Shown: positions 2 through 51,309 of the stretch, one piece after another
Position numbering within the stretch: the first letter of the stretch is position 1
Layout of the letters: each line of letters opens with the position of its first letter
Origin: Ignavibacteriota bacterium
GTDB taxonomy: Bacteria > Bacteroidota > Ignavibacteria > UBA10030 > UBA6906
Assembly (NCBI GenBank): GCA_963801355.1
Contig: CAWDEM010000004.1
Location: forward strand, 672,001-736,000
Length of the DNA stretch: 64,000 nucleotides
Reading direction: 5' to 3'
The notes under the pieces: generated by a model
The model's input: the letters and a program-made list of their open reading frames with translations, nothing else
Databases searched by the model: none
What the model was told of the DNA's origin: nothing
Made by a program: the position numbers and the translations under genes

Positions 2-868
2 CAAGCCCGGTCTGCGACATTCCCGACCAATGTGCCCGATCTCTGTGCTCGCTGCCACCGTGAAGGGCAAAAAGCTGCGGTGCGCTACACCGGAGACCAG
101 AAACAGATTGTCGAACGGTATCGTGAAAGCACTCACGGCAAGGGAATTGCCAAGGGTGGATTGACTGTCACAGCGATGTGCACAAGCTGTCACACCGCTC
201 ACTCCGTCCTTCCGAGGAGCGACTCGCTCTCGAGCATTCATCCCGCCAACGTCCCCTCGACATGTGGCAAATGCCACCATGGTGTGGAAGAGCAGTTTGC
301 CTCAAGCGTCCACGTGACCCAGCGCGGCAAAACGGACAAGACACTTCCGGTATGCGACGACTGCCACAGCGCCCATACCATTCGACGGGCGGATGAAGAG
401 GGATTCAAGCTCACCATCATGAATCAGTGCGGTCGCTGCCATGAGTCTATCGCCAGGACGTATTTTGAAACCTACCATGGCAAAGTCTCCCAACTCGGAT
501 ACACCAAGACAGCAAAGTGCTATGATTGCCATGGGGCACATGACATACGGGCGATTGGTGACCCGCGGTCTCGTCTCAGCCGCGACAATGTCGTAGCTAC
601 CTGTCAACAATGCCACAGTGGCGCGAACAGACGGTTCGCGGGCTATCTGACACACGCGACGCATCATGACCCCGAGAAATATCCCTGGTTATTCTGGACA
701 TTCTGGGGGATGACCGGACTCCTCATTGGGACGTTTGTTGTCAGCGGTGTTCACACATTGCTGTGGCTGCCGCGGGCGTTGAGCTGGAAGCGCCAGCGCG
801 CGAAGGCGGCGCTCGAGGAACAAGCGAAGGCAACATCTGCAGAAGGCGAGACAACCGATGGCGCTTGA
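2..868 (+). CDS. Multiheme cytochrome c with C-terminal TM anchor (CbcL c-domain-like), 5'-truncated by window edge
   Basis: Frame open from base 2; 7 CxxCH (CARCH, CTSCH, CGKCH, CDDCH, CGRCH, CYDCH, CQQCH); C-terminal hydrophobic helix with His (VSGVHTLLW); overlaps the following cytochrome b gene. Confidence 0.9.
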   Translation, partial: QARSATFPTNVPDLCARCHREGQKAAVRYTGDQKQIVERYRESTHGKGIAKGGLTVTAMCTSCHTAHSVLPRSDSLSSIHPANVPSTCGKCHHGVEEQFASSVHVTQRGKTDKTLPVCDDCHSAHTIRRADEEGFKLTIMNQCGRCHESIARTYFETYHGKVSQLGYTKTAKCYDCHGAHDIRAIGDPRSRLSRDNVVATCQQCHSGANRRFAGYLTHATHHDPEKYPWLFWTFWGMTGLLIGTFVVSGVHTLLWLPRALSWKRQRAKAALEEQAKATSAEGETTDGA

Positions 869-1712
869 CAGCACAGAGCAGAGAAACGAACGTCAGTTCC
901 TGCGGTTTTCGCGATTGAACAGGATCCTGCACGCTCTGATGATCGTGTGCTTCCTCAGCCTGGCACTCACAGGGATGACGCTGAAGTTTTCGTACACTGC
1001 CTGGGCGTCAATTCTGTCCCGGTTGTTCGGAGGATATGAAATCGCCGGCTATGTGCACCGCTTTGCCGCCACGGTCATGATCGGCGTCTTTGTCACGCAC
1101 TTGATTGACCTCTTTCATCGGGCAAAGAGGGAACGTGGCGGCTGGAAGGGTCTGCTCTTCGGGCCGGATACGATGTTGCCAACGCGCCGGGACCTTGATG
1201 AATCGTTCAAATCGCTCAAATGGTTCCTCGGCCTGGGAGAACGGCCGCAATTCGGCAGGTGGACCTATTGGGAAAAATTTGATTATTTTGCCGTATTCTG
1301 GGGAATGGTCGTGATCGGGTCCACGGGTCTGACCCTCTGGTTCCCCGAGGTCTTTACTGTGATTTTTCCTGGCTGGCTCATCAACGTCGCGACAATTATT
1401 CATAGCGATGAAGCATTACTGGCGACGGGATTCATTTTTACGGTCCATTTCTTTAATACCCACCTCCGCCCCGAGAAGTTTCCGATGGACCTTGTGATTT
1501 TCACGGGTCGGATGGCCGTTGAGGAGCTCAAGGAGGATAAACCGGCAGAGTACGATCGGCTCGTCAACGATGGAACGTTGGAGCAGCATCTCGTCGAATC
1601 ATATCAGCCCATCGTGATTCGCTCTATCCGTGTCTTCGCGTGGCTTGCGTTGGGCATCGGGTTCAGCATGGTCGTGTGGATCATTTACGCGATGCTGTTC
1701 GCGTACCAATGA
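858..1712 (+). CDS. Di-heme cytochrome b membrane subunit (FdnI/HydC-type; CbcL b-domain-like)
   Basis: [50 protein letters not shown] motifs; several TM helices with conserved His. Confidence 0.88.
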
Positions 1713-1755
1713 TCCGGCCAGCACTGTTGTTTCACCACCGCTGTCAGGCAGTATC

Positions 1756-3249
1756 ATGAAAAGGATCTTCCCTGCATCGTTCTACAATCTTGTATCGCTC
1801 ATTGGTTTTGCGATTGCCGGTGTCAGCCTCGGACTCATCTTCTTCCTCATGCTGCTCGAGGTCATGTCGGGGACCCCGAAACCCTACATGGGAATCCTTG
1901 CCTTCGTGGTGCTGCCGGCGATTCTTCTCCTCGGCCTCATTATTGCCATTGTCGGGATATTCCGTGCACATCGGGATGCCCGCAAGGGACACCCGCACGG
2001 GATGCACCTGCCCCGCATCGACCTGAACAATCCACATCACAGATCGGCTTTCGTTGCCGTGTCGTTCGGGGCCATACTTCTGCTGCTCCTGTCGGCATTC
2101 GGCAGCTTCAAGGCGTACGAACATACGGATTCGGATCAATTCTGCGGGGAAACATGTCACCAGGTCATGGAACCGGAGTATACCGCATACCAGTATTCCC
2201 CGCATGCCCGAGTCGGCTGCGTAAAATGTCATATCGGCTCGGGTGCTGACTGGTTTGTCCGATCGAAACTCTCCGGGACATACCAGCTGTACGCTACAAC
2301 ATTCAACAAGTATCCCCGCCCGATTCCGACGCCCATCGAAAACCTGCGTCCGGCTCAGGAAACTTGTGAACAGTGTCACTGGCCGAAACACTTCTTCAGC
2401 GAGAAGCTGATGAAGAATACCTACTTTCTTTCAGATGACCAGAATACGACATGGTCGATTGATCTTCTGATCAAGATCGGCGGCGGGAATTCAGAGGCCG
2501 GGCCGACTTCGGGCATCCACTGGCACATGAATATCGCAAATGAGCTGACCTATCTCCCGGCGGATTCGTCCCGTCAGACAATTCCCTGGATCCGTTCACG
2601 GGGTCCGGATGGGAAGGTGGTAATCTATAAGAGCACTGAGAGCACGCTCACTGATGAGGAGATGCGGAACGCCAAAACCCGACGAATGGATTGTATCGAC
2701 TGTCACAATCGTCCCACCCATATCTACCATCCGCCGGCCCGGTCTGTGAATCGTGTGATGGCGATGGGGTGGATTGACCCGACCCTTCCTGGAGTGAAGG
2801 GGCTCGCGGTGAACGCGCTTGAAAATCCCTACGCGTTAAGGCAGGGGGCGCTGGACAGCATCAAACTGACCATTGAGGATTACTATCGCACCACGTATCC
2901 AGACCTGGCTGTCGCCAAGAAGAAACAAATCGACAGTGCAGTCGCCGAGGTCCAGAAGATTTACAGCCGCAATTATTTTCCTGAGATGCGTGTAAATTGG
3001 AAATTCTTCCCGAACAATATCGGACATTTGTACTACCCTGGCTGTTTCCGCTGTCACGATGGGAAGCATGTGTCGGAGGACGGGAAAGTGCTGTCGCGAG
3101 ACTGCAACGTCTGTCACACGATTCTTGCCCAGCAGTTCCAGCAGGATACCGCGCGGGTCTCGCTGACCGGCATCGAGTATCGGCATCCGACGGACATCGG
3201 AGACGCATGGAAAGAGACAAATTGCAGCGATTGTCATAATCAGCAATGA
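1756..3249 (+). CDS. ImcH-like NapC/NirT-family heptaheme inner-membrane quinol dehydrogenase
   Basis: ATG at 1756; three N-terminal TM helices (PYMGILAFVVLP); FCGETCHQVMEPEY...SPHARVGCVKCHIG...LRPAQETCEQCHWP; 7 heme motifs incl. one CX3CH. Confidence 0.88.
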   Translation: MKRIFPASFYNLVSLIGFAIAGVSLGLIFFLMLLEVMSGTPKPYMGILAFVVLPAILLLGLIIAIVGIFRAHRDARKGHPHGMHLPRIDLNNPHHRSAFVAVSFGAILLLLLSAFGSFKAYEHTDSDQFCGETCHQVMEPEYTAYQYSPHARVGCVKCHIGSGADWFVRSKLSGTYQLYATTFNKYPRPIPTPIENLRPAQETCEQCHWPKHFFSEKLMKNTYFLSDDQNTTWSIDLLIKIGGGNSEAGPTSGIHWHMNIANELTYLPADSSRQTIPWIRSRGPDGKVVIYKSTESTLTDEEMRNAKTRRMDCIDCHNRPTHIYHPPARSVNRVMAMGWIDPTLPGVKGLAVNALENPYALRQGALDSIKLTIEDYYRTTYPDLAVAKKKQIDSAVAEVQKIYSRNYFPEMRVNWKFFPNNIGHLYYPGCFRCHDGKHVSEDGKVLSRDCNVCHTILAQQFQQDTARVSLTGIEYRHPTDIGDAWKETNCSDCHNQQ

Positions 3250-3302
3250 ACAGTCGCACACGATCTGGCGATCCACTCCATGAACCTCCCCAGAGAACTG
3301 TC

Positions 3303-3752
3303 ATGAACGAGATCGATACGAATCATCAAGGGAAAAGGGATTTTCTTAAATACCTGCTCGGGGGGGGGCTGGTTGCCTGGACCGTTTCGGTGCTGTATCC
3401 TCTGTTTGCGTACATGCGGCCACCCGTGCAGGCGGAAGTGGAAGTCAGCAGTGTCAATGCAGGAAAGCTGAGCACATTTGAGAAAGACAGCGGGGCCATC
3501 ATCCGCTTCGGCAACAAACCGGTGATTTTGATCCGGTCGTCTGCCGGAGAACTCCGCGCCTTTTCTGCGACCTGCACCCATCTCGATTGCACGGTGCAAT
3601 ACCGGAAGGACTTGGGGGTGATATGGTGTGCATGCCACAATGGGAAATATGACTTGAACGGTTCCAATATTGCGGGTCCGCCGCCCCGGCCGCTGGATGA
3701 GTACAGAGTAGTCGTTCGGGGGGATGATATCCTCATCTCAAAGAAAACATGA
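3303..3752 (+). CDS. qcrA: Rieske [2Fe-2S] subunit of Rieske/cytochrome b complex
   Basis: Tat-like KRDFL + TM; CTHLDC and CACHNGKY boxes; GPPPRPL; alternative start 3246. Confidence 0.92.
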
Positions 3753-4828
3753 AGACGATCTGGAACAGACTCTACACATGGATAGATGAACGGGTACAGC
3801 TCGACGACCTGATAGCGTTTATGGCGAAGAAGTACGTGCCCGTTCATCGCGGCTCGATCTGGTACTATTTCGGAGGCGTGTCGCTCTTTCTGTTCATTAT
3901 TCAGGTCGTGACAGGCATCCTTCTTCTCCTGTACTATAAAGGAAGCGAATCGCTGGCGTTCGAAAGCATTCAGTTTATCATGTCAAAGGTGAGCTTTGGC
4001 TGGCTGATCCGATCCATCCATAGCTGGACGGCGAACCTGTTTATTCTTGCGGCGCTCATCCACATGTTCAGTGTCTTCTTTGAGCGGGCGTACCGGCGCC
4101 CCCGTGAGCTTACGTGGTTTACCGGCATGGTGATGCTTTTTGTCGGGCTCGGGTTTGGCTTCAGTGGCTATCTGCTTCCCTGGAATGAGCTGGCTTTTTT
4201 TGCGACGAAAGTGGGAACCGATATCGCCGGTGTGATCCCCGTCGTCGGCAAACCGATAATGATCTTCCTCCGGGGCGGACCCGACGTCACAGGCGCGACG
4301 CTCTCACGATTCTTCGGTTTTCATATTGCGGTGCTGCCGGGAATTTTCACCGTATGCCTGGCCGTTCACCTCCTGCTGGTCCAACGTCAGGGCATGAGTC
4401 AGCCGCAGGAGTTCGAATCGAAGCCTGACGAAAACCCGAAGACCATGCCGTTCTTCCCAAACTTCCTCCTTCGCGACCTCCTGTTTTGGCTGATCATTCT
4501 CAATATCCTGGCTATGCTGGCGGTGTTCTTCCCGTGGGAGCTCGGAAGGAAGGCAGATCCGTTCGCGTCTGCTCCCGCCGGCATAAGGCCGGAATGGTAT
4601 TTTCTCTTCATGTTCCAGTCGCTGAAGTATATCCCTGCACGACTCTGGTTTATTGACGGTGAGGTGTTTGGAGTTCTCGCATTCGGAGCAGCGGGTCTGC
4701 TCTGGCTCCTGGTACCGGTCTGGGACCGCAAGAGCTCCCGGGGGGAACGAAACCGGCTGATCACCTACGTAGGGTTGTTTGTGGTGATCTACATTGTTAT
4801 CTTTACACTACTGGGGTGGTTCCTGTGA
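3749..4828 (+). CDS. qcrB: Cytochrome b of Rieske/cyt b complex (b6 + subunit IV-like, fused)
   Basis: [35 protein letters not shown] Qo motif; four heme His; ATGA overlap with Rieske gene. Confidence 0.95.
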
Positions 4829-4839
4829 GTACGAACCTC

Positions 4840-6327
4840 ATGCGACCCGTCGTGTGCGCGGCGGTGGTCTGCGTCGGTCTTTGTGTGACCACAGCTCTGG
4901 CTGCAGACAAATGTCTGCTCTGTCATGGCGCTGTGGGGGACAAGCCGTCGTCGCTCTATAAGCGAGATATTCATCATCTGAAAAGCATCAGTTGTGCAGG
5001 ATGCCATGGAGGCGACTCCTCCACAGATGATATGGAGAAGGCGATGGATCGCGGGGCAGGATTCATCGGTGTTCCCCAGGGTGATGATATTTCGGCGGTG
5101 TGTGCCCGGTGCCACTCCGAGGCGGCACGGATGGAAGGGTTTCGCTCTAAGCTTCCCACCGACCAGTATGTTCTTTTACAGTCAAGTGTGCACGGCAAGT
5201 TGTCGATCAGCGGGAAAGCACGCATCGTCCAATGCACGACGTGCCACAATGCACACGGCATTGCACGAGTCACTGATCCCGCCTCACCGGTCTATCCGCT
5301 CAACGCAGTAACTACATGTTCCCGTTGTCATGGCGACGCGGGATTTATGCGGGCGTACAACCCATCGTTGCCGGTCGACCAGAGGGAAAAATATCGCACG
5401 AGCGTCCACGGGGCCAAGAATGCCGCCGGTGATGCCAAGACTGCGGAATGTGTGAGTTGCCATGGGAGTCACGATATCCTTTCGGTCAAGGATGTCAAGT
5501 CGAAAGTGTATCCGACGAATATTCCTGCGACCTGCGCCTCGTGCCACAGCAACGCGAGCTATATGAAAGGGTATGCCGTCCCGACCGACCAATTCGAGAA
5601 GTATGCGAAGGGCGTACACGGCGTGGCGCTGCTCGAAAAGCGCGATCTCGGCGCACCCGCGTGCAACAGCTGCCACGGAAATCACGGGGCTACTCCTCCG
5701 GGAGTGGAATCGATCTCGAAGGTGTGCGGCACATGTCACGCGCTGAACGCCGACCTGTTCTCGTCGAGCCCTCACAAGAAGGGTTTCGACGAAATGGGAA
5801 TGCCGGAGTGCGAAACATGCCATGGGAACCATGAGGTTGTAGCCGCAGGGGATGTTCTGCTGGGAACTTCTCCAGGGACTACGTGCAGCCGCTGCCACAG
5901 CCGGCAGGAGCGGGAGAAAGGCTATATCGCAGCGGGTAACATGCGGATCGTGATGGATAGTCTGGAGCGTGCCGAAGACCGGGCACGGAGCCTTGTGGAT
6001 GAAGCGGAGCAAAAAGGCATGGAGATCGGCGAGGCGAAATTCAAGCTTCGTGACATCCGGCAGGCGCGGTTGGAAACACGAACGATGGTCCATGCCTTCA
6101 ATGAAGAAAAATTCCGGGAGACGGCGGTGAAGGGGTTTGCCGTGGCCACGGTCGTCATCGGCGACGCAGAACATGCCGTCGACGAATACTTTTTCCGGCG
6201 CATCGGACTCGGAGCAGCAACGCTGATCATTACCATCCTTGCTGTTTCCCTCTACCTGTATATTCGAAGGATTGAGCGAAGCCAGCGACACGCTGAAGCA
6301 ACACGTCAACAACCACGATCACATTAA
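4840..6327 (+). CDS. 11-heme periplasmic cytochrome c with C-terminal membrane anchor
   Basis: Signal peptide; 11 CxxCH in repeated SVHG-CxxCH-H modules; helical stalk then TM (GLGAATLIITILAVSLYLYI); start could be 4816-4840. Confidence 0.9.
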   Translation: MRPVVCAAVVCVGLCVTTALAADKCLLCHGAVGDKPSSLYKRDIHHLKSISCAGCHGGDSSTDDMEKAMDRGAGFIGVPQGDDISAVCARCHSEAARMEGFRSKLPTDQYVLLQSSVHGKLSISGKARIVQCTTCHNAHGIARVTDPASPVYPLNAVTTCSRCHGDAGFMRAYNPSLPVDQREKYRTSVHGAKNAAGDAKTAECVSCHGSHDILSVKDVKSKVYPTNIPATCASCHSNASYMKGYAVPTDQFEKYAKGVHGVALLEKRDLGAPACNSCHGNHGATPPGVESISKVCGTCHALNADLFSSSPHKKGFDEMGMPECETCHGNHEVVAAGDVLLGTSPGTTCSRCHSRQEREKGYIAAGNMRIVMDSLERAEDRARSLVDEAEQKGMEIGEAKFKLRDIRQARLETRTMVHAFNEEKFRETAVKGFAVATVVIGDAEHAVDEYFFRRIGLGAATLIITILAVSLYLYIRRIERSQRHAEATRQQPRSH

Positions 6328-6345
6328 CCTTCAAGGAGAAACAGT

Positions 6346-6882
6346 ATGCGGTATCTACGCATGTTGAGTGGAGTTCTGGTGTTCGCGATCGTCCTCGCGT
6401 TCACGGGCATTGCAGAGAACAAGTACGTTGGGACGAAATCGTGCGCTATGTGCCACAAAGCAAAGGACAAAGGAGAAACCTTTGTGATCTGGCAGAAGAG
6501 CGCCCATGCGAATGCGTTCAAGACGCTTGAATCGGAGGCAGCCAAGAAAATCGCCAAGGAGAAAGGCATTGAGAAACTTCCTACAGAAGCCCCCGAATGC
6601 CTCTCGTGTCATGTGACCGGCGGCGGCACGGCAAAAAATGTCGAAGCCACTTTTAGTGTGAAGGAAGGTGTCACCTGCGAGGCATGCCACGGTCCGGCGT
6701 CCGGGTTCAAGATGATCCACAACAAGCCCGAGAACAAGGCGAAAGCAGTTCAGGCCGGCCTGATCATCGGCGACAAAGCGAAGACGTGCGAAACCTGTCA
6801 CAACGCGAAGAGCCCGACCTTCAAGGGATTCAAGATGGAGGAGATGTGGGCGAAGATCGAGCACAAACTACCGAAGAAATAG
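6346..6882 (+). CDS. Soluble tetraheme cytochrome c (c554-like domain)
   Basis: AGGAG RBS; signal peptide; YVGTKSCAMCH, W..SAHA, CLSCH, GVTCEACHGP, CETCH; Lys-rich. Confidence 0.9.
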   Translation: MRYLRMLSGVLVFAIVLAFTGIAENKYVGTKSCAMCHKAKDKGETFVIWQKSAHANAFKTLESEAAKKIAKEKGIEKLPTEAPECLSCHVTGGGTAKNVEATFSVKEGVTCEACHGPASGFKMIHNKPENKAKAVQAGLIIGDKAKTCETCHNAKSPTFKGFKMEEMWAKIEHKLPKK

Positions 6883-6903
6883 CGGTCCGGGGTTGAAGGG
6901 AAC

Positions 6904-6939
6904 CACAGGGCCGCCACACGGCGGCCCGGGATCCCTGTG
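6904..6939 (+). other. Intercistronic GC-rich hairpin
   Basis: GGGCCGCC-ACAC-GGCGGCCC (6908-6927); alternative CACAGGG/CCCTGTG pairing; no U-tract. Confidence 0.5.
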
Positions 6940-6988
6940 CGGGGAGCACCTCCTCATTGCCATAAGGCGGTCTTGAAAGGGAATTGGT

Positions 6989-8302
6989 ATGAATGGAATA
7001 CGCCTTCTCAGTCTCATCATGCTGGTGGTCTTCAGCGTGGCGATGGCAACCGCCCAACTGGTGACGGGACGCCTGGCGACATCGTTCTATGCCTGGGAAC
7101 AATTCGACACCGTCGGGACATCGCACCAATCGGTGCGTGCGTTCCAGGCCGTCCAGCTGTCGGCCGCCCAGGGTGATGTCGCCCTGCACACATCGCTCCT
7201 GGGGACGACAAATGTCGTGGGCGAGTTCGGTGACGCGGGAAGGGTGCGCCTCTTCAATCTGTATGTGAGCTGGCTGAACATCGGCAAGAGCGTGGACCTG
7301 CATCTCGGCCGCCAGCTGGTGTTCGCGGGAGTCGGCAACGGTTCCATCGACGGGCTCGTGGCGCAGGCCTATTTCCTCAACCGCGGGATCCGCGTGACGG
7401 GCTTCGGCGGGGCAACCGTGTCGCCCGAGTTCGCCGGTGTGAGGAAGAACATGCACGAGAACTACCATGTTGGCGCACAGATTGTCACTACGATGATCCC
7501 CGACGCCCGCATCGGCATCAGCTATGCCAACCGCCGGGAAGAGCGTGATCCCTACATGGCGCTCCGCACGCGCGATACATCCTTTACTCCTGTGTCGTAC
7601 CTGGTCATGCATGACGCCGACGCCGAAGAACTGGGGAGTGCCGACGCTTCCTACACGTTCCGCGACCGGTTGTCGGTGTACGGACGGTACGACTACGATT
7701 TCAAGAATGTGCGGACCTCCCGGGCACAGGGCGGCGTACGCGTCAACGTCACCAGTGACCTTGCCGTCACCGGTGACTATATCCACCGTCTTCCGCGCAT
7801 CTCCTTCAATTCCATCTTCTCGGCATTCGTCACGAATGCGGTGGATGAGATTGAAGGCGGGGTGGACTACGGCTTTACGCCGATGCTTCGCGCCTTCGGC
7901 CGCCTGGCACATGTCTCCTACGCGGAAGATGAACAGAGCACGCGGTGGACCCTCGGTGTGAACAGCGCCTACGGGAGTGCAAGTTATTCCGGCAGTGACG
8001 GCTATGCGGGAGAGCTGCAGTCGGTCAGTCTGCAGGGCACGTATCCGTTCTGGGGAAAGACTGTCGTGCCGATGGCCGGTGTCTCGTACGCATCGTACCG
8101 CTTGAGCAGGGAAAGCGAGCGTGAGAGTGCGTTCGGCGTTCTGGCCGGGGCCATCGTGCGACCCGCCCCTTCATTCTCGCTGGATGTGCAGGGGCAATGG
8201 CTGAACAACACCTTGATGCGGCGCGATCTGCGCGTGCAGGTGAAACTCATGTACTGGTTTGCAGAGCGGCTTTCACTCTTCAACGGGGAGGGCACACGAT
8301 GA
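6989..8302 (+). CDS. Putative outer-membrane beta-barrel of a porin-cytochrome conduit
   Basis: Signal peptide; alternating amphipathic beta pattern rich in Y/G/F; no heme motifs; ATGA-coupled to 14-heme cytochrome. Confidence 0.75.
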   Translation: MNGIRLLSLIMLVVFSVAMATAQLVTGRLATSFYAWEQFDTVGTSHQSVRAFQAVQLSAAQGDVALHTSLLGTTNVVGEFGDAGRVRLFNLYVSWLNIGKSVDLHLGRQLVFAGVGNGSIDGLVAQAYFLNRGIRVTGFGGATVSPEFAGVRKNMHENYHVGAQIVTTMIPDARIGISYANRREERDPYMALRTRDTSFTPVSYLVMHDADAEELGSADASYTFRDRLSVYGRYDYDFKNVRTSRAQGGVRVNVTSDLAVTGDYIHRLPRISFNSIFSAFVTNAVDEIEGGVDYGFTPMLRAFGRLAHVSYAEDEQSTRWTLGVNSAYGSASYSGSDGYAGELQSVSLQGTYPFWGKTVVPMAGVSYASYRLSRESERESAFGVLAGAIVRPAPSFSLDVQGQWLNNTLMRRDLRVQVKLMYWFAERLSLFNGEGTR

Positions 8303-9507
8303 ACCGGCGCTCGTCTATCGTTCTGGTGGTTGCGGCCGGCCTGCTCGTGACGGCGGCCCTCGCGGTTCGCCCGGCGGCACAGATCGGGTGGCCCCGGCTT
8401 GATGACAGCACGCACATGAAATTCTCACACAAAACGCACATCGAAGGCGCGGGTGTCGGTTGCGAGACGTGTCATCCCAACGCATCCACCAGCAAACTCT
8501 CCGCCGACAATCTCCGCAGTGTGCACGACAACTGCATGTCCTGCCATGAGGAACAGATCAACAATCAGTGTGATTTCTGCCACGTTGATCCGGACAACGT
8601 ACAGGCGGCCCCTGGGCAGGTGCGTGAGATCCAGTTCTCGCACGTCCAGCATGTGGGTATGCCCGGCGTGCAATGTACGACATGCCATGCGGGGCTGAAT
8701 GAAGCCGATTTTGCAGGTCCGGAACATATGCCTGCGATGGCTGTCTGCGCGACGTGTCACAATGATAGGAAAGCCAGCAACGCGTGCGAATCCTGTCACA
8801 CACAGCTGACAGGTCTGATACCTCCGGATCACCTTGTGGCGGGGTTCAAGAGGAATCACAAGAACCTGACCCGTCTGAGTGGCATGGAGACCAATTGCAG
8901 TACCTGTCATACACAGAATTTCTGCGGCGAATGCCACACGCCGGGTGCGGTGATGCAGTTCGGGAACGGTCCGCTGATGAGCGATCCCAATCCGCGTGTC
9001 TTTCCCGGAACGTCGGTACCGCAAACGACGCTGCAGCGCGCTCACGATATGAACTATCGCTTCACCCATGGTATCGACGCAAAGTCAAAATCGTCGGAAT
9101 GCTACACCTGCCATGCGGCACAGGAGTTTTGCGGTGAATGCCACGCGGCGGGAGACAATATCACATCGTATTCCTTCAAACCATCGTGGCACCTTGGTGC
9201 CGGTTTCACGACGCTCGGCGTCGGGAGCGGCGGGGGCCGTCATGCCCAACTCGCCCGGCGCGACATCGAGTCCTGCGTGAACTGCCATGATACACAGGGC
9301 AATGACCCGATCTGCATTACCTGTCACGCCGATGGCGATGGTTTCAAAAATACGGATCCCCGGACACATCAGGCGGGGTACATGCGAGGGGAACACGGTG
9401 CATGGCACGTCAATAGCGGCGCCACGTGCTATAATTGTCACACAGACCTCAATGCGCGTCCTGACGGGGTCAAAGGCAGAAACTTCTGCGGCTATTGCCA
9501 CGGCTAA
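8299..9507 (+). CDS. 14-heme periplasmic cytochrome c (c3/c7-like FSH..H repeats)
   Basis: ATG 8299; signal peptide; FSHKTH/FSHVQH motifs; 14 CxxCH. Confidence 0.9.
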   Translation: MNRRSSIVLVVAAGLLVTAALAVRPAAQIGWPRLDDSTHMKFSHKTHIEGAGVGCETCHPNASTSKLSADNLRSVHDNCMSCHEEQINNQCDFCHVDPDNVQAAPGQVREIQFSHVQHVGMPGVQCTTCHAGLNEADFAGPEHMPAMAVCATCHNDRKASNACESCHTQLTGLIPPDHLVAGFKRNHKNLTRLSGMETNCSTCHTQNFCGECHTPGAVMQFGNGPLMSDPNPRVFPGTSVPQTTLQRAHDMNYRFTHGIDAKSKSSECYTCHAAQEFCGECHAAGDNITSYSFKPSWHLGAGFTTLGVGSGGGRHAQLARRDIESCVNCHDTQGNDPICITCHADGDGFKNTDPRTHQAGYMRGEHGAWHVNSGATCYNCHTDLNARPDGVKGRNFCGYCHG

Positions 9508-9523
9508 GGAGGATGGAATATCC

Positions 9524-10930
9524 ATGAGAGCATTGATGAGGTCGTTAGGGAGTGCCATCATTACTATTCTCCTCGGTCTGGGAGCCGCGGGTTGCGGTGC
9601 GCTGAACGAAGACCTTCCCGCGCCCAACAAACCGGAATCACAAATCCATGAGACCGGCTGGAATGACCAGACGTCTGCGAACTTCCACGGTACAATCCTG
9701 CAGGCCGGCAACTATGATTACGCGAAGTGCGTGACCTGTCACGCAAAGTCGTTTGCGGGCGGGACCAGCGGCGTGGGCTGCTTTTCCTGCCATCAATCCT
9801 TCCCTCACAAAGCCGGCTGGCTTGATGCCTCATCAAACAACTTCCATGGCAAGTTCCTCCGCCTTGGCATGGGTCAGCTGGTTGATTGTGCGAAATGCCA
9901 TGGCACAGGGTTTGACGGCGGGACCAGCGGCAAGTCATGCTACACATGTCATGCCTCCTACCCGCACAAGTCCGGATGGTTGGATCCTGCATCGTCGGTC
10001 TCACACGGGAAATTCCTGAAGACAAAGAACTGGCAGGTGGTAGAGTGTGCACAGTGCCACGGAAGTGATTTTGCCGGCGGAAGCAGCGGGAAAGCCTGCT
10101 TCACATGTCATGCATCGTATCCCCACACCGTGTTTGTCGCCGCGTCCGGGCATGCGGGCTACCTGTTGAGTCACGGGTATCCCCTTGCTCAGTGCAAGAG
10201 CTGCCACGGCAACGCATATACAGGCGGATCGGTCGTGAACGTCTCCTGCTCAACCGCAGGATGCCATGTGGACAACACCGGAGCGGCTAAATCGCCGGAG
10301 GCGTGCAATACCTGTCACGGACAATTCCGCGCGTTGGCGAGCGATGCCCTCTCGGCCGCGCCGCCCAAAAGCGTGCTGGGTGATTCTCTCACGAGCGCGC
10401 GAGGGGTCGGCGCGCATGCCAAACATCTGTTGTCCGGCACCCTGGGCAGGCCAGTGAAGTGCGCGGAGTGCCATGCGAAGCCGGCGTCGTTGTTCGCTTC
10501 CGGACATGTCGATACACCGCTGCCGGCCGAAGTGGCGTTCAATGACACTCTCGCCCGACTGAAAACAGGGGGAGGGACCTTCGATCCCGCTCCAACATAC
10601 AATCCGACAACACTGAAGTGTGCCAACACCTATTGCCACGGCAACTGGCAGATGAAGAAGTCCGAATCCATTTATGCGTATATCTTCACGGACTCGGTAA
10701 TGGTCGGTGCCTCAGCGGGACCGTCGTGGAGCGAAGGAGCTTCGGTGGCATCATGCGGCAGTTGCCATGGCACAGCGGAGTCCGTCACGCCAAAGGGTCA
10801 CATGGCGTTCAATCTGAACAGCTGCGTCAACTGCCACATCGGCGTTGTCAATGGCTCAGGCCAGATCATCAATCAGGCACTGCACATCAATGGCAAGGCC
10901 AACAGCTTTGGTTCCGAGCGGTCATTCTGA
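9524..10930 (+). CDS. 13-heme lipoprotein cytochrome (CxxCH/CX4CH type), likely outer-surface
   Basis: AAGGAGG upstream; lipobox LGAAG-C; 11 CxxCH + 2 CX4CH (CSTAGCH, CANTYCH); ends H.NG. Confidence 0.88.
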   Translation: MRALMRSLGSAIITILLGLGAAGCGALNEDLPAPNKPESQIHETGWNDQTSANFHGTILQAGNYDYAKCVTCHAKSFAGGTSGVGCFSCHQSFPHKAGWLDASSNNFHGKFLRLGMGQLVDCAKCHGTGFDGGTSGKSCYTCHASYPHKSGWLDPASSVSHGKFLKTKNWQVVECAQCHGSDFAGGSSGKACFTCHASYPHTVFVAASGHAGYLLSHGYPLAQCKSCHGNAYTGGSVVNVSCSTAGCHVDNTGAAKSPEACNTCHGQFRALASDALSAAPPKSVLGDSLTSARGVGAHAKHLLSGTLGRPVKCAECHAKPASLFASGHVDTPLPAEVAFNDTLARLKTGGGTFDPAPTYNPTTLKCANTYCHGNWQMKKSESIYAYIFTDSVMVGASAGPSWSEGASVASCGSCHGTAESVTPKGHMAFNLNSCVNCHIGVVNGSGQIINQALHINGKANSFGSERSF

Positions 10931-10970
10931 CGTCACACTGAACGGCTAGGGAGCACACTCCCTGTGCAAT

Positions 10971-11012
10971 GAATCCCGGTTCCGCTCATGCGGGGCCGGG
11001 ATTCCTGCTTTT
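10971..11012 (+). terminator. Probable intrinsic terminator after cytochrome operon
   Basis: 15-bp stem GAATCCCGGTTCCGC-TCAT-GCGGGGCCGGGATTC (two G-U) followed by CTGCTTTT. Confidence 0.7.
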
Positions 11013-11176
11013 GCACTCCTGCAAAGGTTTTCCCAGAGATTGGAATCCCATTGAGCGCAGAAGAGCGCAAATTCCCTCAAATCGCTATCTAATGGTCGTT
11101 TTTGCGTGTTTGTGATGGTGGACCGGTGGCACGCAACTTGAACGGTATAGGGCACCCAAGCATCTGTGGAGTACCA

Positions 11177-13402
11177 ATGACTGTTCTTGCACATTATGTT
11201 CTGCTTCTTGCACTGTTGACCTCGGTGTCCTCGGCGGTACTGTATTTCCGTGCCGCCTCTACACGGGACGAAAGGTTGACCGTCCCGCGCGCACTGCTTC
11301 TCTCCAGCGTCTCACTTGTTGTTATCGCCTGCGCCATCCTGATCTTGTTGCTTATCCGGCATGATTTCAGCAATGCCTATGTGTACGGGTACAGCGATAG
11401 ATCGCTGCCGCTCCATTTTCTTCTCTCTGCGTTTTACGCAGGGCAGGAAGGGAGTTTCCTTTTCTGGACTCTCTGCTCGTCGCTCATCGCCCTCTGGTTG
11501 ATGCGGTCGCGGTCAGCTACACCAGCCGTGCTCACGGTCTACCTGTTCGTGAACTCGATGCTCCTGCTCCTCGTGTTTGCGAAAACCCCTTTCCACTCGA
11601 TCTGGGATGCGTACCCCGGCGTGCCGGCGGGCCAGATACCCGCGGACGGCCACGGCCTCAATCCGCTGCTGCAGAACTTCTGGATGGTCATCCATCCTCC
11701 CGTCCTGTTTCTGGGTTTTGCTCTGATGGGTGTGCCATTCTGCCAGGCCGTCGCAGCACTCTGGACACGGCAGTATGACGCATTTGCCCGGGACGGATTG
11801 GGGTGGGTGTTGACGGGTGCCTTCGTGCTGGGACTGGGCATCATGCTCGGCGCCTATTGGGCATACGGTGTGCTGGGCTGGGGCGGCTACTGGGGGTGGG
11901 ACCCTGTTGAGAACTCCTCACTGATCCCATGGCTGACGGCCATTGCTCTCGTGCATACGCTGCTTGCACAGCGGAGGACCGGCAAGTACCGCCGGACGAA
12001 CTTCTTCCTTGCCATTGTCACGTTCTTTCTTGTCATCTACAGCACATTTCTGACCCGGAGCGGGATCCTGGGCGATGCTTCGGTGCATTCGTTCTCCGAT
12101 CCGGGCGCATCGGTGTATGTCCTGCTCCTCATCTTTCTTGCATTGATCGCGGTCATGGGCATCGCCGTCATGGTCCTGCGCATGCGCGACCTGGCACCGC
12201 CACACGCCGGCACGGGATGGTTGACGCGTGAGATTCTGCTCGGTGCCGGAGCCATCGCGCTCCTGCTCTGCGCGGTGGTGATTCTCTTCGGCACAAGCCT
12301 TCCGATATTCTCCACTACCCGTGTCGAAACCTCTTTCTACGACATCACGAATCTGCCGGTCGGCATCCTTTTCGGATTGCTCATCGGCATCAGTCTGTAC
12401 ACGCAGTGGGAGGAGCAGGACATCCGCTTCACGATCCAGAAATCGTGGAAGGCTCTCCTCGCGGCGCTCCTCATCACCGCCGTACTCGTGGCGGCGGGGA
12501 TGCGGGACCCTCTGACGAGTGCAATGGTATGCACGGCGATTTTTGCGCTCCTTGTCAATATCGACATCGGGGCAAGGGGACTCCGCGGCGGCATACTGCT
12601 GCTTGGCGGCAAGCTGGCCCACATCGGTATTGCGCTGTTCTTGATCGGTGTGGTCAGCACCGGCGTGTACGATGAAACAGCACACGTCGGCTTGCCCCAG
12701 CACGAACCCGTGCAGGTGCTCGGACATACACTCTCCTACGACGGATACACTGTCCGCCCTGACGGCAAGTACGAATTTCGCGTCACAGCCACCGAAGGAA
12801 CACGGACATTTACTATTCTTCCGGTGATGTTTGAAGCACCCCAGCAAGGGATCATGCGGAATCCCGACATTGTCTCGTCGCTGACGTCGGACTTCTATCT
12901 GTCGCCGGTTTCTCTGGAGCCCGCCGAAGGCGGGACGGTGCCCGAAGAGCACGAACTGGCGAAGGGGGCCACAATCGTGCACGATAATGCCCGGGTGAAG
13001 TTTGTCCGGTTTGATATGGGCCCGGACAGGGGGGGAATGGGCGCACACGGCTCAACCGTGGCCATTGCAGCGGTGCTGGAAGTGGAGCGTGGCAAAGCCC
13101 GCGAGACATTATTCCCCGCCCTCGCACAGCGCGAGACGGGCGAAACCGACTACCGGCCTGCCATGTCGAAGCTGCTCGGGACAGAGGTGCGCCTGTTGAA
13201 GGTCAACGTGGGGATGGGTGATGCATCACCTTCGAAGATTGTCGTGGGATTTCAACGCGCGCATGCCCCACCGGCCCGGCCTGAGACATTGATGGTCGAA
13301 GCGAGTGTCAAGCCCTTCATCATTCTGTTGTGGGGAGGGACGTTGGTCATGATGGCAGGATTTGTCCTGGCAATCATCAAACGTATGAGGGAGGCAGCAT
13401 GA
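11177..13402 (+). CDS. ccmF: Cytochrome c maturation heme lyase CcmF/NrfE
   Basis: GQEGSFL, GLNPLLQNFWMVIHPP, WGGYWGWDPVEN (WWD), TFLTRSG, SVHSF motifs; ATG 11177. Confidence 0.95.
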   Translation: MTVLAHYVLLLALLTSVSSAVLYFRAASTRDERLTVPRALLLSSVSLVVIACAILILLLIRHDFSNAYVYGYSDRSLPLHFLLSAFYAGQEGSFLFWTLCSSLIALWLMRSRSATPAVLTVYLFVNSMLLLLVFAKTPFHSIWDAYPGVPAGQIPADGHGLNPLLQNFWMVIHPPVLFLGFALMGVPFCQAVAALWTRQYDAFARDGLGWVLTGAFVLGLGIMLGAYWAYGVLGWGGYWGWDPVENSSLIPWLTAIALVHTLLAQRRTGKYRRTNFFLAIVTFFLVIYSTFLTRSGILGDASVHSFSDPGASVYVLLLIFLALIAVMGIAVMVLRMRDLAPPHAGTGWLTREILLGAGAIALLLCAVVILFGTSLPIFSTTRVETSFYDITNLPVGILFGLLIGISLYTQWEEQDIRFTIQKSWKALLAALLITAVLVAAGMRDPLTSAMVCTAIFALLVNIDIGARGLRGGILLLGGKLAHIGIALFLIGVVSTGVYDETAHVGLPQHEPVQVLGHTLSYDGYTVRPDGKYEFRVTATEGTRTFTILPVMFEAPQQGIMRNPDIVSSLTSDFYLSPVSLEPAEGGTVPEEHELAKGATIVHDNARVKFVRFDMGPDRGGMGAHGSTVAIAAVLEVERGKARETLFPALAQRETGETDYRPAMSKLLGTEVRLLKVNVGMGDASPSKIVVGFQRAHAPPARPETLMVEASVKPFIILLWGGTLVMMAGFVLAIIKRMREAA

Positions 13403-13665
13403 ATGAAGTGGCGGCGAAAACGCTCCGGCGCCTGCCGGCTAATGTCGGAGGACGGTTCTTCACCACCGAGGATTGCGATGGATGTGCATATTGCGCATCC
13501 ATTGCACCCGACAATTTTGATTACCAGAAGGAGACCAACACCTATTTCGTTTCCCGGCAGCCCCGAACGAAGGCCGAGGAAGATGAAATGATGGAGGCAT
13601 TGGAGGATTGTCCGGTGGATGCCATCCGTTTGGGAAGCGACGGCAACGGAAAGGTCCGGGAGTGA
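13399..13665 (+). CDS. Single-cluster ferredoxin
   Basis: CDGCAYC...APDNF...CPVDAI; ATGA overlap with ccmF; GGAGG RBS. Confidence 0.88.
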   Translation: MNEVAAKTLRRLPANVGGRFFTTEDCDGCAYCASIAPDNFDYQKETNTYFVSRQPRTKAEEDEMMEALEDCPVDAIRLGSDGNGKVRE

Positions 13666-44149: not shown

Positions 44150-44238
44150 TACGGATCACAACAGGTTTTGCCGATATTGCCGATCTTGGACACACCGGTA
44201 GTGCTGGGAATGTTCAATTGACTCCTGAAGGAGGAGAT

Positions 44239-45396: not shown

Positions 45397-45478
45397 TAGG
45401 GCGGCCTGAGACCGGCGACAAGATCAAGCGTCCGGCGGGATCAAGACATAGACTGTGGCAAAGGGATAGAAAGAACAT

Positions 45479-45507
45479 GAGCCGCATCGGAAACCCCGGT
45501 GCGGCTC
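45479..45507. terminator. Hairpin between convergent genes
   Basis: GAGCCGCATCGG-N5-CCGGTGCGGCTC (one G-U). Confidence 0.65.
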
Positions 45508-45571
45508 GCGTATTTGTCGTCCGCCTCTACGGCCCACCTGGACTGCGTCCGTTTCCCGTTTTGTGCTGCAA

Positions 45572-46117: not shown

Positions 46118-46219
46118 ATGATCCTTCAGAAAGGTAGAACGGGAATTGAACGGAATCAACCCCCCGTTGGCAATGGGGGGCACAGCCCCCTGGTTCGTTA
46201 TATGAATAGGAGGCCTGCT

Positions 46220-51301: not shown

Positions 51302-51309
51302 GGGAGATT

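Follow-up and report, generated by a model that had tools for sequence, protein, structure and literature searches.

The upstream end of the window, the 64,000-nt stretch of DNA that was analysed, carries a string of multihaem cytochrome genes that raises a question: do they form one route from the quinone pool to the cell surface, or several respiratory modules that share a neighbourhood? From gene content and structure models, we consider it likely that they form a respiratory operon under sigma-54 control in an Ignavibacteria-type bacterium, through which about 81 c-type haems connect the pool of menaquinone with the cell surface. A role as a route for respiring minerals outside the cell appears plausible.

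Gene content, packing and expression signals

In the window, the string comprised ten co-directional genes and ccmF, all on the + strand and tightly packed, with intergenic gaps of at most 106 nt and four overlapping gene junctions. Order, strand and packing agreed with the earlier note, and our recount of haem c motifs gave the same total of 56 (7 + 7 + 11 + 4 + 14 + 13). The note had correctly recognised the first gene as truncated; the locus reaches about 7 kb further upstream, beyond the window edge, and contains 81 haem motifs as a whole. Because 7 of the only 12 ORFs with at least three CXXCH motifs in the 4.8-Mb genome lie within the locus, the clustering is not due to chance. The proposed Ignavibacteria/Bacteroidota origin was likewise borne out, and a T9SS tail domain was found. 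The family assignment of each gene was backed by Pfam and NCBIfam profiles, the NCBIfam scores lying under all curated cut-offs of the named equivalogs. The features, with genes numbered g0 to g10, are as follows.

Upstream of the window, ahead of g1: a 142-aa ORF, a USP gene, a sigma-54 response regulator (NtrC-type) and a PAS histidine kinase
Upstream of the window, before g1: g0, 13-haem/cytochrome b fusion, CbcL-type (multihaem c/dihaem b)
2..868, +: 3' part of g1, multihaem c, with 7 of the full gene's 19 motifs
858..1712, +: g2, dihaem cytochrome b of HydC/FdnI (Ni_hydr_CYTB) type, 4-5 TM helices
1756..3249, +: g3, ImcH-type heptahaem inner-membrane cytochrome, 3 TM helices, NapC/NirT/NrfH-like region
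3246..3752, +: g4, Rieske 2Fe-2S subunit (motifs CTHLDC ... CACH), one TM anchor
3749..4828, +: g5, cytochrome b6-type subunit fused to a subunit-IV-like part, 7 TM helices
4816..6327, +: g6, 11-haem cytochrome c, signal peptide, C-terminal TM anchor
6346..6882, +: g7, periplasmic tetrahaem cytochrome, c554-like, positional counterpart of IALB_1840
6908..6927, +: G+C-rich hairpin (GGGCCGCC-ACAC-GGCGGCCC) with no T run, read from the sequence in the 106-nt g7-g8 gap
6989..8302, +: g8, outer-membrane beta-barrel of about 24-26 strands, signal peptide, counterpart of porin-like IALB_1839
8299..9507, +: g9, 14-haem cytochrome, 402 aa, c7-like domains
9524..10930, +: g10, lipoprotein cytochrome, lipobox ...GLGAAG-C at residue 24, 11 CXXCH + 2 CX4CH
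10971..11004, +: terminator-like hairpin, 15-bp stem, 10 G-C pairs, T-rich tail, 40 nt past the g10 stop
11127..11141, +: sigma-54-type -24/-12 motif TGGCACGCAACTTGA, 35 nt before the ccmF start codon
11177..13402, +: ccmF, CcmF/NrfE-type haem lyase paralogue, second of two in the genome

This real, tightly packed multihaem gene cluster is common in Ignavibacteria-type bacteria rather than peculiar to one genome. Of 401 genomes sampled from the class, 251 carried the barrel. In all 47 loci whose downstream flank reached 5.5 kb or more, the barrel was followed by g9 and g10; ccmF lay downstream in 35 of them. Where at least 9.9 kb was available upstream (n = 46), the tetrahaem gene was present in 45 loci, the ImcH-like gene in 42 and the Rieske module in 31-32 (missing from 14-15), whereas all eight upstream genes occurred together in at least 10, a lower bound limited by the 10-kb flank. 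Gene order was kept across many genera. Since relatives differ in their module sets, the conduit does not depend on every module.

The operon structure is predicted from spacing and motif matches. The sigma-54 regulator gene is immediately followed by a sigma-54 motif, TGGCACAACTATTGA, which lies 33 nt ahead of the USP gene and is kept in all eight loci having both genes. Ahead of ccmF, a motif of the same kind was seen in 28 of 40 loci, and in each of the 18 listed from L005 to L025, those most similar to the window. Exact sigma-54 motifs numbered 42 genome-wide, with three in the 16-kb locus. Consensus scans gave no enrichment relative to shuffled sequences (sigma-54, 22 matches vs 19.8 expected; terminator-like, 13 sites vs 11.6), and we therefore weigh these signals only by their position and conservation. 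The hairpin at 10971..11004 probably marks the end of the cytochrome operon, and that at 6908..6927 is a possible processing or stability element. Because one sigma-54 promoter heads the whole string, the modules would be co-expressed rather than switched transcriptionally. In Geobacter, cbcBA expression has been described as sigma-54/BccR dependent.

Predicted quinol-interacting modules

Four inner-membrane modules are predicted to interact with quinol: the CbcL-type fusion, the 19-haem c subunit with its dihaem b partner, the ImcH-type protein and the Rieske/b6/11-haem complex. The earlier note had counted three; the additional one is the fused g0, upstream of the window. Its CbcL-like reading of the multihaem c and cytochrome b genes was right as to the CbcL/MtoC/MtrH family, but the pair in the window is split and CbcBA-like, and the true fused CbcL-type gene lies just upstream. 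The whole of g1 encodes 666 aa with 19 CXXCH motifs, a signal peptide and a single TM helix at the C terminus; its start lies 1133 nt outside the window, on the upstream side (L002 14868-16868), and its stop is overlapped by the start of g2. Together, the two proteins (666 + 284 aa, 19 haems) match 944-952-aa, 19-haem, 6-TM Ignavibacteria entries listed in the CbcL/MtoC/MtrH table of Zhong & Shi 2018 (PMC6295460). In related loci, the pair was split in 15 and fused in 7. By these features, g1 and g2 are classed as a split CbcL/MtoC/MtrH-type quinol module in a CbcBA-like arrangement.

The ImcH-like call for g3 was upheld. Judged by architecture, published motif tables and family HMMs rather than by direct alignment (as was the likeness to CbcL), g3 follows the layout of Geobacter sulfurreducens ImcH (GSU3259) almost residue for residue. 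The two proteins are 497 and 507 aa long, with TM helices at 7-25, 47-65 and 98-116 in g3 and at 13-35, 45-67 and 100-122 in GSU3259. The seven haem motifs of g3, one CX3CH and six CXXCH (residues 130, 155, 204, 313, 430, 450 and 490), are collinear with those of GSU3259 (132, 156, 205, 311, 428, 448 and 486), and the first motif is CX3CH in both. Furthermore, H135, K171, Q177 and Y186 of g3 lie at a constant offset of -2 from H137, K173, Q179 and Y188, residues reported as conserved in ImcH, and the same pattern appears in the Ignavibacteria ImcH homologues given by Zhong & Shi 2018 (PMC6295460).

The Rieske, cytochrome b and 11-haem module was also supported, by Pfam and NCBIfam families and by sequence motifs. 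The b subunit g5, the sole cytochrome b6/bc-type gene of the genome, carries H-x13-H and H-x14-H histidine pairs and a PEWY motif, and scored 203.5 bits against the ExtP model (cut-off 290). The 11-haem g6 is presumed to be the c subunit of this complex, and g7 a periplasmic shuttle.

Outer-membrane part and direction of electron flow

The earlier note's barrel call for 6989-8302 was supported by structure modelling and comparison. The AlphaFold2 model of g8 (pLDDT 78.5, pTM 0.68) has 26 strand elements, Foldseek matched it to outer-membrane barrels (E about 1e-10), and VIA-align gave Z scores of 19.4 to FyuA, 18.2 to FimD and 15.5 to MtrB (6r2q_B; 332 aligned, rmsd 5.1). The protein thus models as a large beta-barrel without a plug domain, and no Pfam family matched it. 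The start of g9 overlaps the g8 stop (ATGA), and its best profile match was 3ov0_A (E 6.5e-23), with MtrA touched weakly (E 0.0011). A complex prediction for g8 and g9 weakly supported their association, scoring 0.55 vs 0.28 for the best of three controls, and may reflect memory of the solved, similar complex MtrAB. The predicted runs agreed in at least 55% of contacts, with a partner pLDDT of at least 66. Of 157 solved complexes, 116 attained this score mark, as did 2 of 215 mismatched pairs; only 18 of the 157 solved complexes, and both passing mismatches, fell at 0.60 or below. The lipobox of g10 agreed with its earlier assignment as a lipoprotein. The second ccmF presumably serves specifically to mature the cytochromes encoded here.

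In the pathway that we propose, the PAS kinase and NtrC-type regulator would turn on the whole set, and at least one of the four modules would oxidise menaquinol. From there, electrons would pass to the tetrahaem shuttle g7, to the 14-haem g9 lodged in the barrel g8 and then, via the surface lipoprotein cytochrome g10, to Fe(III)/Mn(IV) minerals, humics, electrodes or partner cells. Energy coupling probably differs from module to module, being most conserving in the Q-cycle-type Rieske/b complex, electroneutral in ImcH and perhaps dissipative in the b-type modules. The exit carrying the flux would then be set by acceptor potential rather than by separate transcription. ImcH, CbcL and CbcBA have been described as operating at different potentials. 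Melioribacter, said to have such a Pcc cluster, is reported to reduce Fe(III), and Ignavibacteria with Pcc clusters have been reported as abundant on anodes.

The same hardware could run in reverse, taking up electrons from Fe(II), a cathode or a syntrophic partner, with the Rieske/b and CbcL/MtoC-type modules reducing menaquinone, partly uphill, and other electrons going to oxygen or nitrate. CbcL/MtoC/MtrH homologues occur in Fe(II) oxidisers and reducers alike, with no sequence feature that tells them apart, and the haem-copper oxidases of the genome are possible sinks. The bc1 complex of Acidithiobacillus ferrooxidans runs in reverse. However, quinol oxidation is the only role in which ImcH homologues have been implicated to date, and Fe(III) reduction by a cultured carrier cited in the literature and the enrichment of Ignavibacteria on anodes also point outwards. 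We regard uptake as unlikely.

It also seems improbable that the quinol modules are general respiratory branches lying beside a Pcc cluster with no shared pathway. The variable module content described above would fit such a neighbourhood, as would the Rieske/b complex being the only one in the genome. However, an alternative complex III (ACIII) adjoins a haem-copper oxidase elsewhere in the genome, so the Rieske/b complex is not needed for the aerobic chain, and its 11-haem c subunit is unlike an oxidase donor. The close, co-directional packing, bounded by a conserved sigma-54 motif and a terminator-like hairpin, and the gene order kept across genera, further argue for a common pathway.

A barrel serving as a solute channel, with the cytochromes reducing an acceptor that is soluble or periplasmic, such as selenite/tellurite, polysulfide, arsenate or a nitrogen oxide, is very doubtful. 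In its favour, the Geobacter porin ExtI, which neighbours multihaem cytochromes and a Rieske/cytochrome b pair, is implicated in selenite/tellurite reduction in the account of PMC5877670, g5 matches the ExtP model below its cut-off, and the top structural matches of g8 are transporters and ushers. However, Pfam and NCBIfam profiles revealed no catalytic reductase gene (molybdoenzyme, NrfA or rhodanese) in the locus, the barrel is plug-less, and its translational coupling to g9, with the lipoprotein cytochrome always following, is the defining Pcc/Mtr layout.

Comparison with known systems

The individual parts of the proposed quinol-to-surface conduit are already known, the outer-membrane part included. 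The latter matches the Pcc cluster IALB_1840-1837 of I. album, a sequence-based prediction (Shi, Fredrickson & Zachara 2014; PMC4245776) comprising, like g7-g10, a small periplasmic cytochrome, a porin-like protein, a 14-haem protein of about 400 aa and an outer-membrane cytochrome with CX3-15CH motifs. The counterpart of g9, IALB_1838, has 400 aa and 14 motifs, and that of g10, IALB_1837, is the outer-membrane cytochrome with atypical motifs. A locus in an I. album-labelled MAG (L045) contains g7-g10 orthologues in unchanged order with 36-49% identity. The description in PMC4245776 covers the four Pcc genes only and does not mention ImcH-type, CbcL-type, Rieske/b, regulator or ccmF neighbours. 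The I. album genome paper gives ACIII as the only complex III; L045 nonetheless has Rieske and cytochrome b genes. The composite of all modules in one locus was not found in the published literature.

At the inner membrane, the closest likenesses are to Geobacter sulfurreducens. Besides g3 and ImcH, g0 resembles CbcL (GSU0274) in joining multihaem c and dihaem b parts in a single protein, and g1 and g2 pair a C-terminally anchored c subunit with a separate dihaem b as in CbcBA (GSU0593-0594). The sigma-54 promoter and sigma-54 response regulator also recall cbcBA/BccR. In Geobacter, however, ImcH, CbcL and CbcBA are encoded at separate loci, with imcH and cbcL constitutive, whereas here they form one string with an outer-membrane conduit. 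The haem numbers differ as well (13 and 19 here vs 9 and 7 in Geobacter), as does gene order (c then b here, cbcB then cbcA there). The Geobacter extHIJKLMNOPQS cluster likewise groups a porin-like protein and multihaem cytochromes with a Rieske protein (ExtO) and a cytochrome b (ExtP), with no ImcH- or CbcL-type gene in its description (PMC5877670). Unlike that cluster, the present locus has g5 fused to a subunit-IV part, and it lacks a rhodanese and a selenocysteine cytochrome.

The mtr cluster of Rhodoferax ferrireducens, with two cymA genes and mtrH, offers a precedent for several quinol oxidases clustered with an outer-membrane conduit (Zhong & Shi 2018; PMC6295460). As described there, it combines an MtrCAB-type conduit with CymA-type oxidases, without an ImcH-type protein or a Rieske/b complex. 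Shewanella MtrCAB (6R2Q) follows the same logic as g8-g10, with a multihaem protein inside a large barrel and a lipoprotein cytochrome as its cap. The barrel here is smaller (437 aa vs 649 residues in the MtrB chain) and has no sequence-family match, and, unlike in MtrCAB, the 14 haems of the inner cytochrome are carried by c7-like units.

Gene content and extent of the locus

The earlier note described ten packed, co-directional genes followed by ccmF at positions 2 to 13402 of the window, and this arrangement was borne out by the ORF listing and translation. Its count of 56 haem c motifs (7 + 7 + 11 + 4 + 14 + 13) was reproduced as well: seven in the part of the truncated first gene (g1) that lies in the window, seven in the NapC/NirT-type g3 (six CXXCH and one CX3CH), 11, 4 and 14 in g6, g7 and g9, respectively, and 13 in the lipoprotein g10 (11 CXXCH and two CX4CH). 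The locus extends upstream beyond the window edge, where all genes are on the same strand, and the cytochromes of the full locus contain 81 haem motifs in total (13 + 19 + 7 + 11 + 4 + 14 + 13). Given that seven of the 12 ORFs with at least three CXXCH motifs in the whole 4.8-Mb genome sit at this locus, the clustering is not a matter of chance.

Genes of the locus in upstream-to-downstream order. Coordinates are window positions except for L002, the host genome's own upstream stretch.
Furthest upstream gene read, + strand: soluble PAS-PAS histidine kinase
Directly upstream of the USP gene, + strand: NtrC-type sigma-54 response regulator
Upstream of the 142-aa ORF, + strand: universal stress protein (USP) gene
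L002 12201–12629, + strand, between the USP gene and g0: 142-aa ORF, no Pfam family
Before g1, + strand: g0, 727–745 aa, 13 CXXCH fused to a Ni_hydr_CYTB domain (CbcL arrangement)
Upstream and 2–868, + strand: g1, 666 aa, 19 CXXCH, one C-terminal TM helix
858–1712, + strand: g2, HydC/FdnI-type cytochrome b (Pfam, NCBIfam)
1756–3249, + strand: g3, NapC/NirT/NrfH-like region (Pfam, NCBIfam)
3246–3752, + strand: g4, Rieske protein (Pfam, NCBIfam)
3749–4828, + strand: g5, cytochrome b6 with a fused subunit-IV-like part (Pfam, NCBIfam)
4816–6327, + strand: g6, 11-haem cytochrome
6346–6882, + strand: g7, tetrahaem cytochrome
6989–8302, + strand: g8, predicted barrel
8299–9507, + strand: g9, 14-haem cytochrome
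9524–10930, + strand: g10, lipoprotein cytochrome
11177–13402, + strand: CcmF/NrfE (Pfam, NCBIfam)

The remaining cytochromes of the locus were recognised as multihaem c domains in Pfam and NCBIfam. The 142-aa ORF gave only a faint receiver-domain-like match (PorX model, E = 0.0059); in Geobacter, too, the first genes of the cbcBA operon are hypothetical ones and one for a response regulator. Three quinol-oxidising modules had been proposed for the window. Those named all have counterparts, but four quinol-interacting modules were counted once the g0 fusion upstream was added.

Other features of the window were also recorded. An Acg-family FMN-binding nitroreductase-like gene follows ccmF (13608–14708, +; NF047509, 256.9 bits, above the cut-off) and has counterparts behind ccmF in 15 of 80 related loci, all among the most window-like, at 45%–62% identity. 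A HemN-type oxygen-independent coproporphyrinogen oxidase gene and a URO-D-like gene of haem synthesis (24343–25734 and 59155–60237) may share the window with the 81-haem locus by coincidence. Two genes for TonB-dependent receptors that carry CarboxypepD_reg domains, together with a FecR-type anti-sigma gene (41945–49643), ca. 30 kb from the cytochrome locus, likely serve the uptake of iron or another nutrient. A run of ORFs without a Pfam match at E 1e-5 occupies positions 49718–56538; among them, a candidate 482-aa ORF with four CXXCH motifs (53921–55369, +) overlaps a longer ORF on the opposite strand, and either strand may be the coding one.

Quinol-interacting modules

The proposed likeness of g3 to ImcH was substantiated by its TM helices, its NapC/NirT region and seven collinear haem motifs. 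ImcH has been described as combining NapC/NirT homology with three TM helices and seven motifs, of which CXXXCH comes first (Levar 2014). In the 497-aa g3, a hydropathy scan placed TM helices at residues 7–25, 47–65 and 98–116, compared with 13–35, 45–67 and 100–122 in GSU3259, the ImcH of G. sulfurreducens (Zhong and Shi 2018, supplementary table, PMC6295460). The haem motifs of g3 lie at residues 130 (CX3CH), 155, 204, 313, 430, 450 and 490, and those of the 507-aa GSU3259 at 132, 156, 205, 311, 428, 448 and 486 (Zhong and Shi 2018, PMC6295460); three Ignavibacteria ImcH homologues in the table of that study share the g3 pattern. The NapC/NirT-like region matched PF03264 (E = 4.5e-11) and NrfH (2j7a_C, E = 7.9e-4). 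Residues H137, K173, Q179 and Y188 are reported to be conserved around haem 1 of ImcH (2023 preprint), and E127 was compared as well. When mapped by the motif-1 offset rather than by alignment, H135, K171, Q177 and Y186 of g3 match the four conserved residues at a fixed offset of −2, whereas position 125 is D instead of E. The nearest protein-atlas clusters, taken as a lead only, were NapC/NirT-type proteins of 449–512 aa from Bacteroidota, Acidobacteriota and Thermodesulfobacteriota. By architecture and motif positions, g3 is a predicted member of the ImcH family; its membership, like that of g0–g2 in the CbcL family, was judged against published motif tables and not by alignment with Geobacter sequences.

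Both g0 and g1 + g2 show a multihaem c part with a HydC/FdnI-type dihaem cytochrome b, as in the CbcL/MtoC/MtrH family. The g0 protein carries 13 CXXCH motifs and a PF01292 match at residues 496–678 (E = 2.3e-14); g1 carries 19 CXXCH motifs, and g2 matches PF01292 at E = 1.8e-7. By a crude hydropathy scan, the haem domain of g0 is followed by four TM segments, and g1 + g2 have 1 + 4. The nine haems and six TM helices of GSU0274, the CbcL of G. sulfurreducens, were not found in these proteins, with 13 haems in g0 and 19 in g1. Since the published range for the family is 3 to 23 motifs, these haem numbers are no bar to membership. The g1 + g2 pair (666 + 284 aa, 19 haems) corresponds to Ignavibacteria entries of 944–952 aa with 19 haems and six TM helices in the CbcL/MtoC/MtrH Table S2 of Zhong and Shi, and the haem spacing matches. 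The pair was split in 15 and fused in 7 of 22 related loci; a frameshift artefact was rejected because the split recurs, which is therefore real. In an architecture scan, the C-terminal TM anchor of g1 and the 4-TM dihaem b of g2 reproduced the CbcBA-type subunit layout, mimicking Geobacter CbcA (c-type with a C-terminal anchor) and CbcB (dihaem b), although g1 has 19 haems compared with 7 in Geobacter CbcBA and the gene order also differs. The earlier description of a CbcL-like multihaem c plus cytochrome b was thus right as to family (haem c with PF01292) but not as to layout, g1 + g2 being split and CbcBA-like.

The third expected module, comprising Rieske, cytochrome b and 11-haem proteins, was confirmed by its Rieske boxes, His pairs, PEWY motif and family matches. 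The Rieske boxes of g4 are CTHLDC at residue 110 and CACH at 128; g5 has the His pairs H91-x13-H105 and H192-x14-H207 and the Qo motif PEW(Y) at 281. Pfam matches in g4–g5 were PF00355, PF00033 and PF00032, and g5 scored 231.9 bits against cytochrome b6 PRK03735 (cut-off 325). No monohaem cytochrome c1 or f was found as the third subunit of the module; g6, an 11-haem protein with a C-terminal anchor, stands there instead. An 11-haem third subunit has parallels in other multihaem 'Cbc'-type variants. The g5 protein is the sole b6/bc-type cytochrome b in the genome. Because an alternative complex III (ACIII) adjoins a haem-copper oxidase elsewhere in the genome, g4–g6 is unlikely to be an aerobic complex III, and this assignment was rejected. 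The I. album genome paper gives ACIII as the sole complex III of the organism, 'unlike' relatives with cytochrome b-Rieske complexes (PMC3362086). In L045, a locus of an I. album-labelled MAG, Rieske and cytochrome b6-type genes (5974–7517) are encoded directly upstream of the porin-cytochrome conduit (Pcc) genes. The published ACIII-only view of complex III in I. album is thereby corrected, at least for the I. album-labelled MAG.

Predicted outer-membrane conduit, regulation and haem maturation

Genes g8–g10 place a barrel beside a periplasmic multihaem cytochrome and a lipoprotein cytochrome, which is the Pcc layout. The g8 protein belongs to no Pfam or NCBIfam family (the sole match, LptD at E = 0.0018, was below its cut-off), and every one of its at least 194 homologues is unnamed or 'hypothetical'. 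Nevertheless, the expectation that 6989–8302 would model as a barrel held in both the AlphaFold2 prediction and the fold matches. The model, based on a 34-row alignment, had a pLDDT of 78.5, a pTM of 0.68, a signal helix and 26 strand elements, and its Foldseek matches were outer-membrane barrels (E = 1e-11 to 1e-8). A structural search against representatives gave Z scores of 19.4 for FyuA, 18.7 for BtuB, 18.2 for the FimD pore and 15.5 for MtrB (6r2q_B); the similarity to MtrB was therefore lower than that to TonB-dependent receptor and usher barrels. In the comparison with the MtrB/PioB/MtoB family, g8 has 437 aa, compared with 649 residues in the MtrB chain of 6R2Q. In the model, g8 forms a large, plug-less barrel.

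The g9 start codon overlaps the g8 stop codon (ATGA coupling), 14 CXXCH motifs were present in 65 of 68 complete g9 orthologues, and the g9 profile matched c7-type multidomain cytochromes (3ov0_A, E = 6.5e-23). A two-chain prediction of g8 + g9 scored 0.55 against 0.28 for the best of three controls, with runs agreeing in at least 55% of contacts and a partner pLDDT of at least 66. Of 157 solved complexes, 116 attained that mark, as did 2 of 215 mismatched pairs; at scores of 0.60 or below it was reached by only 18 of the 157, and both passing mismatches fell there. The support is weak. Moreover, the pass may reflect likeness alone, because MtrAB has been solved. The lipobox of g10 includes Cys24, and among the 13 orthologues examined, nine of the ten with a plausible lipobox match had acidic residues within the six positions after the Cys, as part of a conserved ...LK.DLPAP stretch. 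We take the acidic stretch to be reminiscent of Bacteroidota lipoprotein export signals.

In 15 of 69 complete g7 orthologues, the first CXXCH is replaced, in the same place, by the one-residue-shorter CXCH (CACH or CNCH; related loci L052, L053, L058–L061, L064, L065, L067, L070, L071, L073, L074, L076 and L077). To our knowledge, CXCH is not an established haem-binding motif; it may indicate single-thioether attachment or an unusual lyase substrate.

A −24/−12 motif, TGGCACAACTATTGA, sits immediately behind the sigma-54 regulator gene, 33 nt ahead of the USP gene, and it occurred at the same distance in all eight related loci holding both genes. From this motif to g10, gaps did not exceed 106 nt, and a terminator-like hairpin with a 15-bp stem follows g10. 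That all four modules share a single promoter speaks against their being switched individually by transcription. A second sigma-54 motif, TGGCACGCAACTTGA, lies 35 nt before ccmF; its relaxed form was found in 28 of 40 loci and in 18 of 18 listed loci in the range L005–L025, those most like the window. The genome contains 42 exact sigma-54 motifs, three of them in the 16-kb locus (one inside g10). Because consensus scans were not enriched, either for the sigma-54 pattern with two mismatches (22 matches, 19.8 expected) or for terminators (13 versus 11.6 expected), only well-placed, conserved sites were used. The layout parallels that of cbcBA in Geobacter, an operon whose promoter is of the sigma-54 type and whose regulator is BccR. 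Outside the window, at G000:C4:1118921 on the same contig, the exact sigma-54-type motif TGGCACAACAGTTGA lies ca. 210 nt upstream of an 8-CXXCH ORF (C4:1119147–1121339), which, from this motif, could belong to the same regulon.

A second CcmF-like gene is present elsewhere in the genome, beside a CcmC-like match, and the ccmF at the locus is therefore an extra copy. We infer that it may serve the many haems of the locus or its atypical CX3CH/CX4CH sites, as an analogy with NrfE would suggest.

Distribution, proposed function and known relatives

Relatives of the barrel were collected by a pattern scan with one genome per species, which yielded 170; the best 80 loci were labelled Ignavibacteria/Bacteroidota, apart from a few odd bin labels. 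Where the downstream flank measured 5.5 kb or more (47 loci), the barrel was followed by g9 and g10 in every case and by ccmF in 35. Upstream genes were counted in the 46 loci whose flank on that side of the barrel reached 9.9 kb or more: g7 was present in 45, the ImcH-type g3 in 42, the Rieske g4 in 31, and the cytochrome b g5 and the 11-haem g6 in 32 each. The counts for the g0 fusion (at least 33 of 46), g1 (at least 19), g2 (at least 22) and all eight upstream genes together (at least 10) are lower bounds, because the cluster reaches 10.4 kb upstream in the window, compared with the 10-kb flank. The position of g7 varies among loci: in some it precedes the ImcH-type gene, in others it stands immediately ahead of the barrel.

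Several of the loci with the barrels closest to that of the window (61%–93% identity; L003, L005–L008, L014 and L021) had no Rieske block and an ImcH-type gene of only 48%–54% identity, whereas loci with more distant barrels (51%–59%, among L009–L024) had the Rieske/b/11-haem block and an ImcH-type gene of 70%–74% identity. The modules thus seem to have been exchanged or lost independently of one another, a pattern that suggests modular exchange within the class.

We consider it probable that the locus conducts electrons from menaquinol to the cell surface and on to acceptors outside the cell. Its four quinol exits would differ in energy coupling, and by analogy with Geobacter, flux would be partitioned among them by acceptor potential. 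The reading as an extracellular electron transfer (EET) system was right in kind, with potential switching a hypothesis; its uniqueness was overstated, the locus type being conserved across the class. Among the less probable readings, reverse operation, with the conduit used for electron uptake, fares best, as CbcL/MtoC types also occur in oxidisers. A solute-channel or soluble-acceptor role would follow the proposal for Geobacter ExtI (PMC5877670). A mere neighbourhood of independent respiratory branches is unlikely as well, the genes being closely spaced and co-directional.

An extension of the conduit reading, which we regard as unlikely on present evidence, is a class-wide 'switchboard' in which Rieske/b6, ImcH and the two b-type modules are co-expressed onto one wire, and acceptor potential alone selects the exit and energy yield. 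The Rieske/cytochrome b6 proteins would form a proton-motive Q-cycle complex with an 11-haem exit, ImcH would be electroneutral, two b-type modules (CbcL/CbcBA-like) would be added, and one redox-sensing sigma-54 circuit would drive all modules. If true, this would be the first instance in which energy conservation of the complex-III type is wired directly to the respiration of minerals or electrodes, and the locus would be a compact, transferable EET cassette with its own haem lyase.

Ignavibacteria occur widely, from sediments, aquifers and wetlands to anammox reactors and the biofilms of anodes. The barrel profile matched 251 of 401 sampled genomes of the class (228 of 359 high-quality genomes; 109 of 176 genera) and gave no match in whole families. 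Should the inferred function hold, most of the class would have a complete quinone-to-surface pathway. Inner-membrane entry points that are scattered in the Geobacter genome would then be linked here to a conduit, a regulator and a haem lyase. This linkage makes it testable, in cultured Melioribacter/Ignavibacterium or in Geobacter/Shewanella mutants, which inner-membrane oxidase feeds which conduit, and whether a Rieske/cytochrome b complex conserves energy during extracellular respiration.

In the literature searched (bioRxiv supplements being outside its scope), no description of the composite Ignavibacteria locus was found, nor any publication tying Ignavibacteria Rieske genes to EET. The available text of Gavrilov (2017) on M. 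roseus covers aerobic and arsenate respiration and does not mention the cluster. What thus appears to be undescribed is the whole, in which four quinol modules occur together with a shuttle, a conduit, a sigma-54 circuit and a dedicated haem lyase, conserved throughout the class; each single part belongs to a known family. A Pcc cluster was predicted in I. album by Shi et al. (2014; PMC4245776), with the periplasmic cytochrome IALB_1840, the porin-like IALB_1839, IALB_1838 (400 aa and 14 motifs, the largest Pcc periplasmic cytochrome then known to the authors) and the outer-membrane cytochrome IALB_1837, which has atypical motifs. As far as described there, IALB_1840–1837 fits g7–g10, and on its gene content g8–g10 is the known predicted Pcc type of IALB_1839–1837. 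The I. album-labelled L045 has counterparts of g7–g10 (36%–49% identity), with 11-haem, cytochrome b, Rieske, ImcH-type and 13-haem/b fusion genes upstream and ccmF downstream. Later papers report 'Geobacter-like' Pcc clusters in Ignavibacteria and Fe(III) reduction by Melioribacter. There are precedents for more than one quinol oxidase being encoded next to a conduit: the Rhodoferax mtr cluster contains two cymA genes and mtrH (PMC6295460), and Geobacter extHIJKLMNOPQS encodes a porin, cytochromes, the Rieske protein ExtO and the cytochrome b ExtP (PMC5877670).
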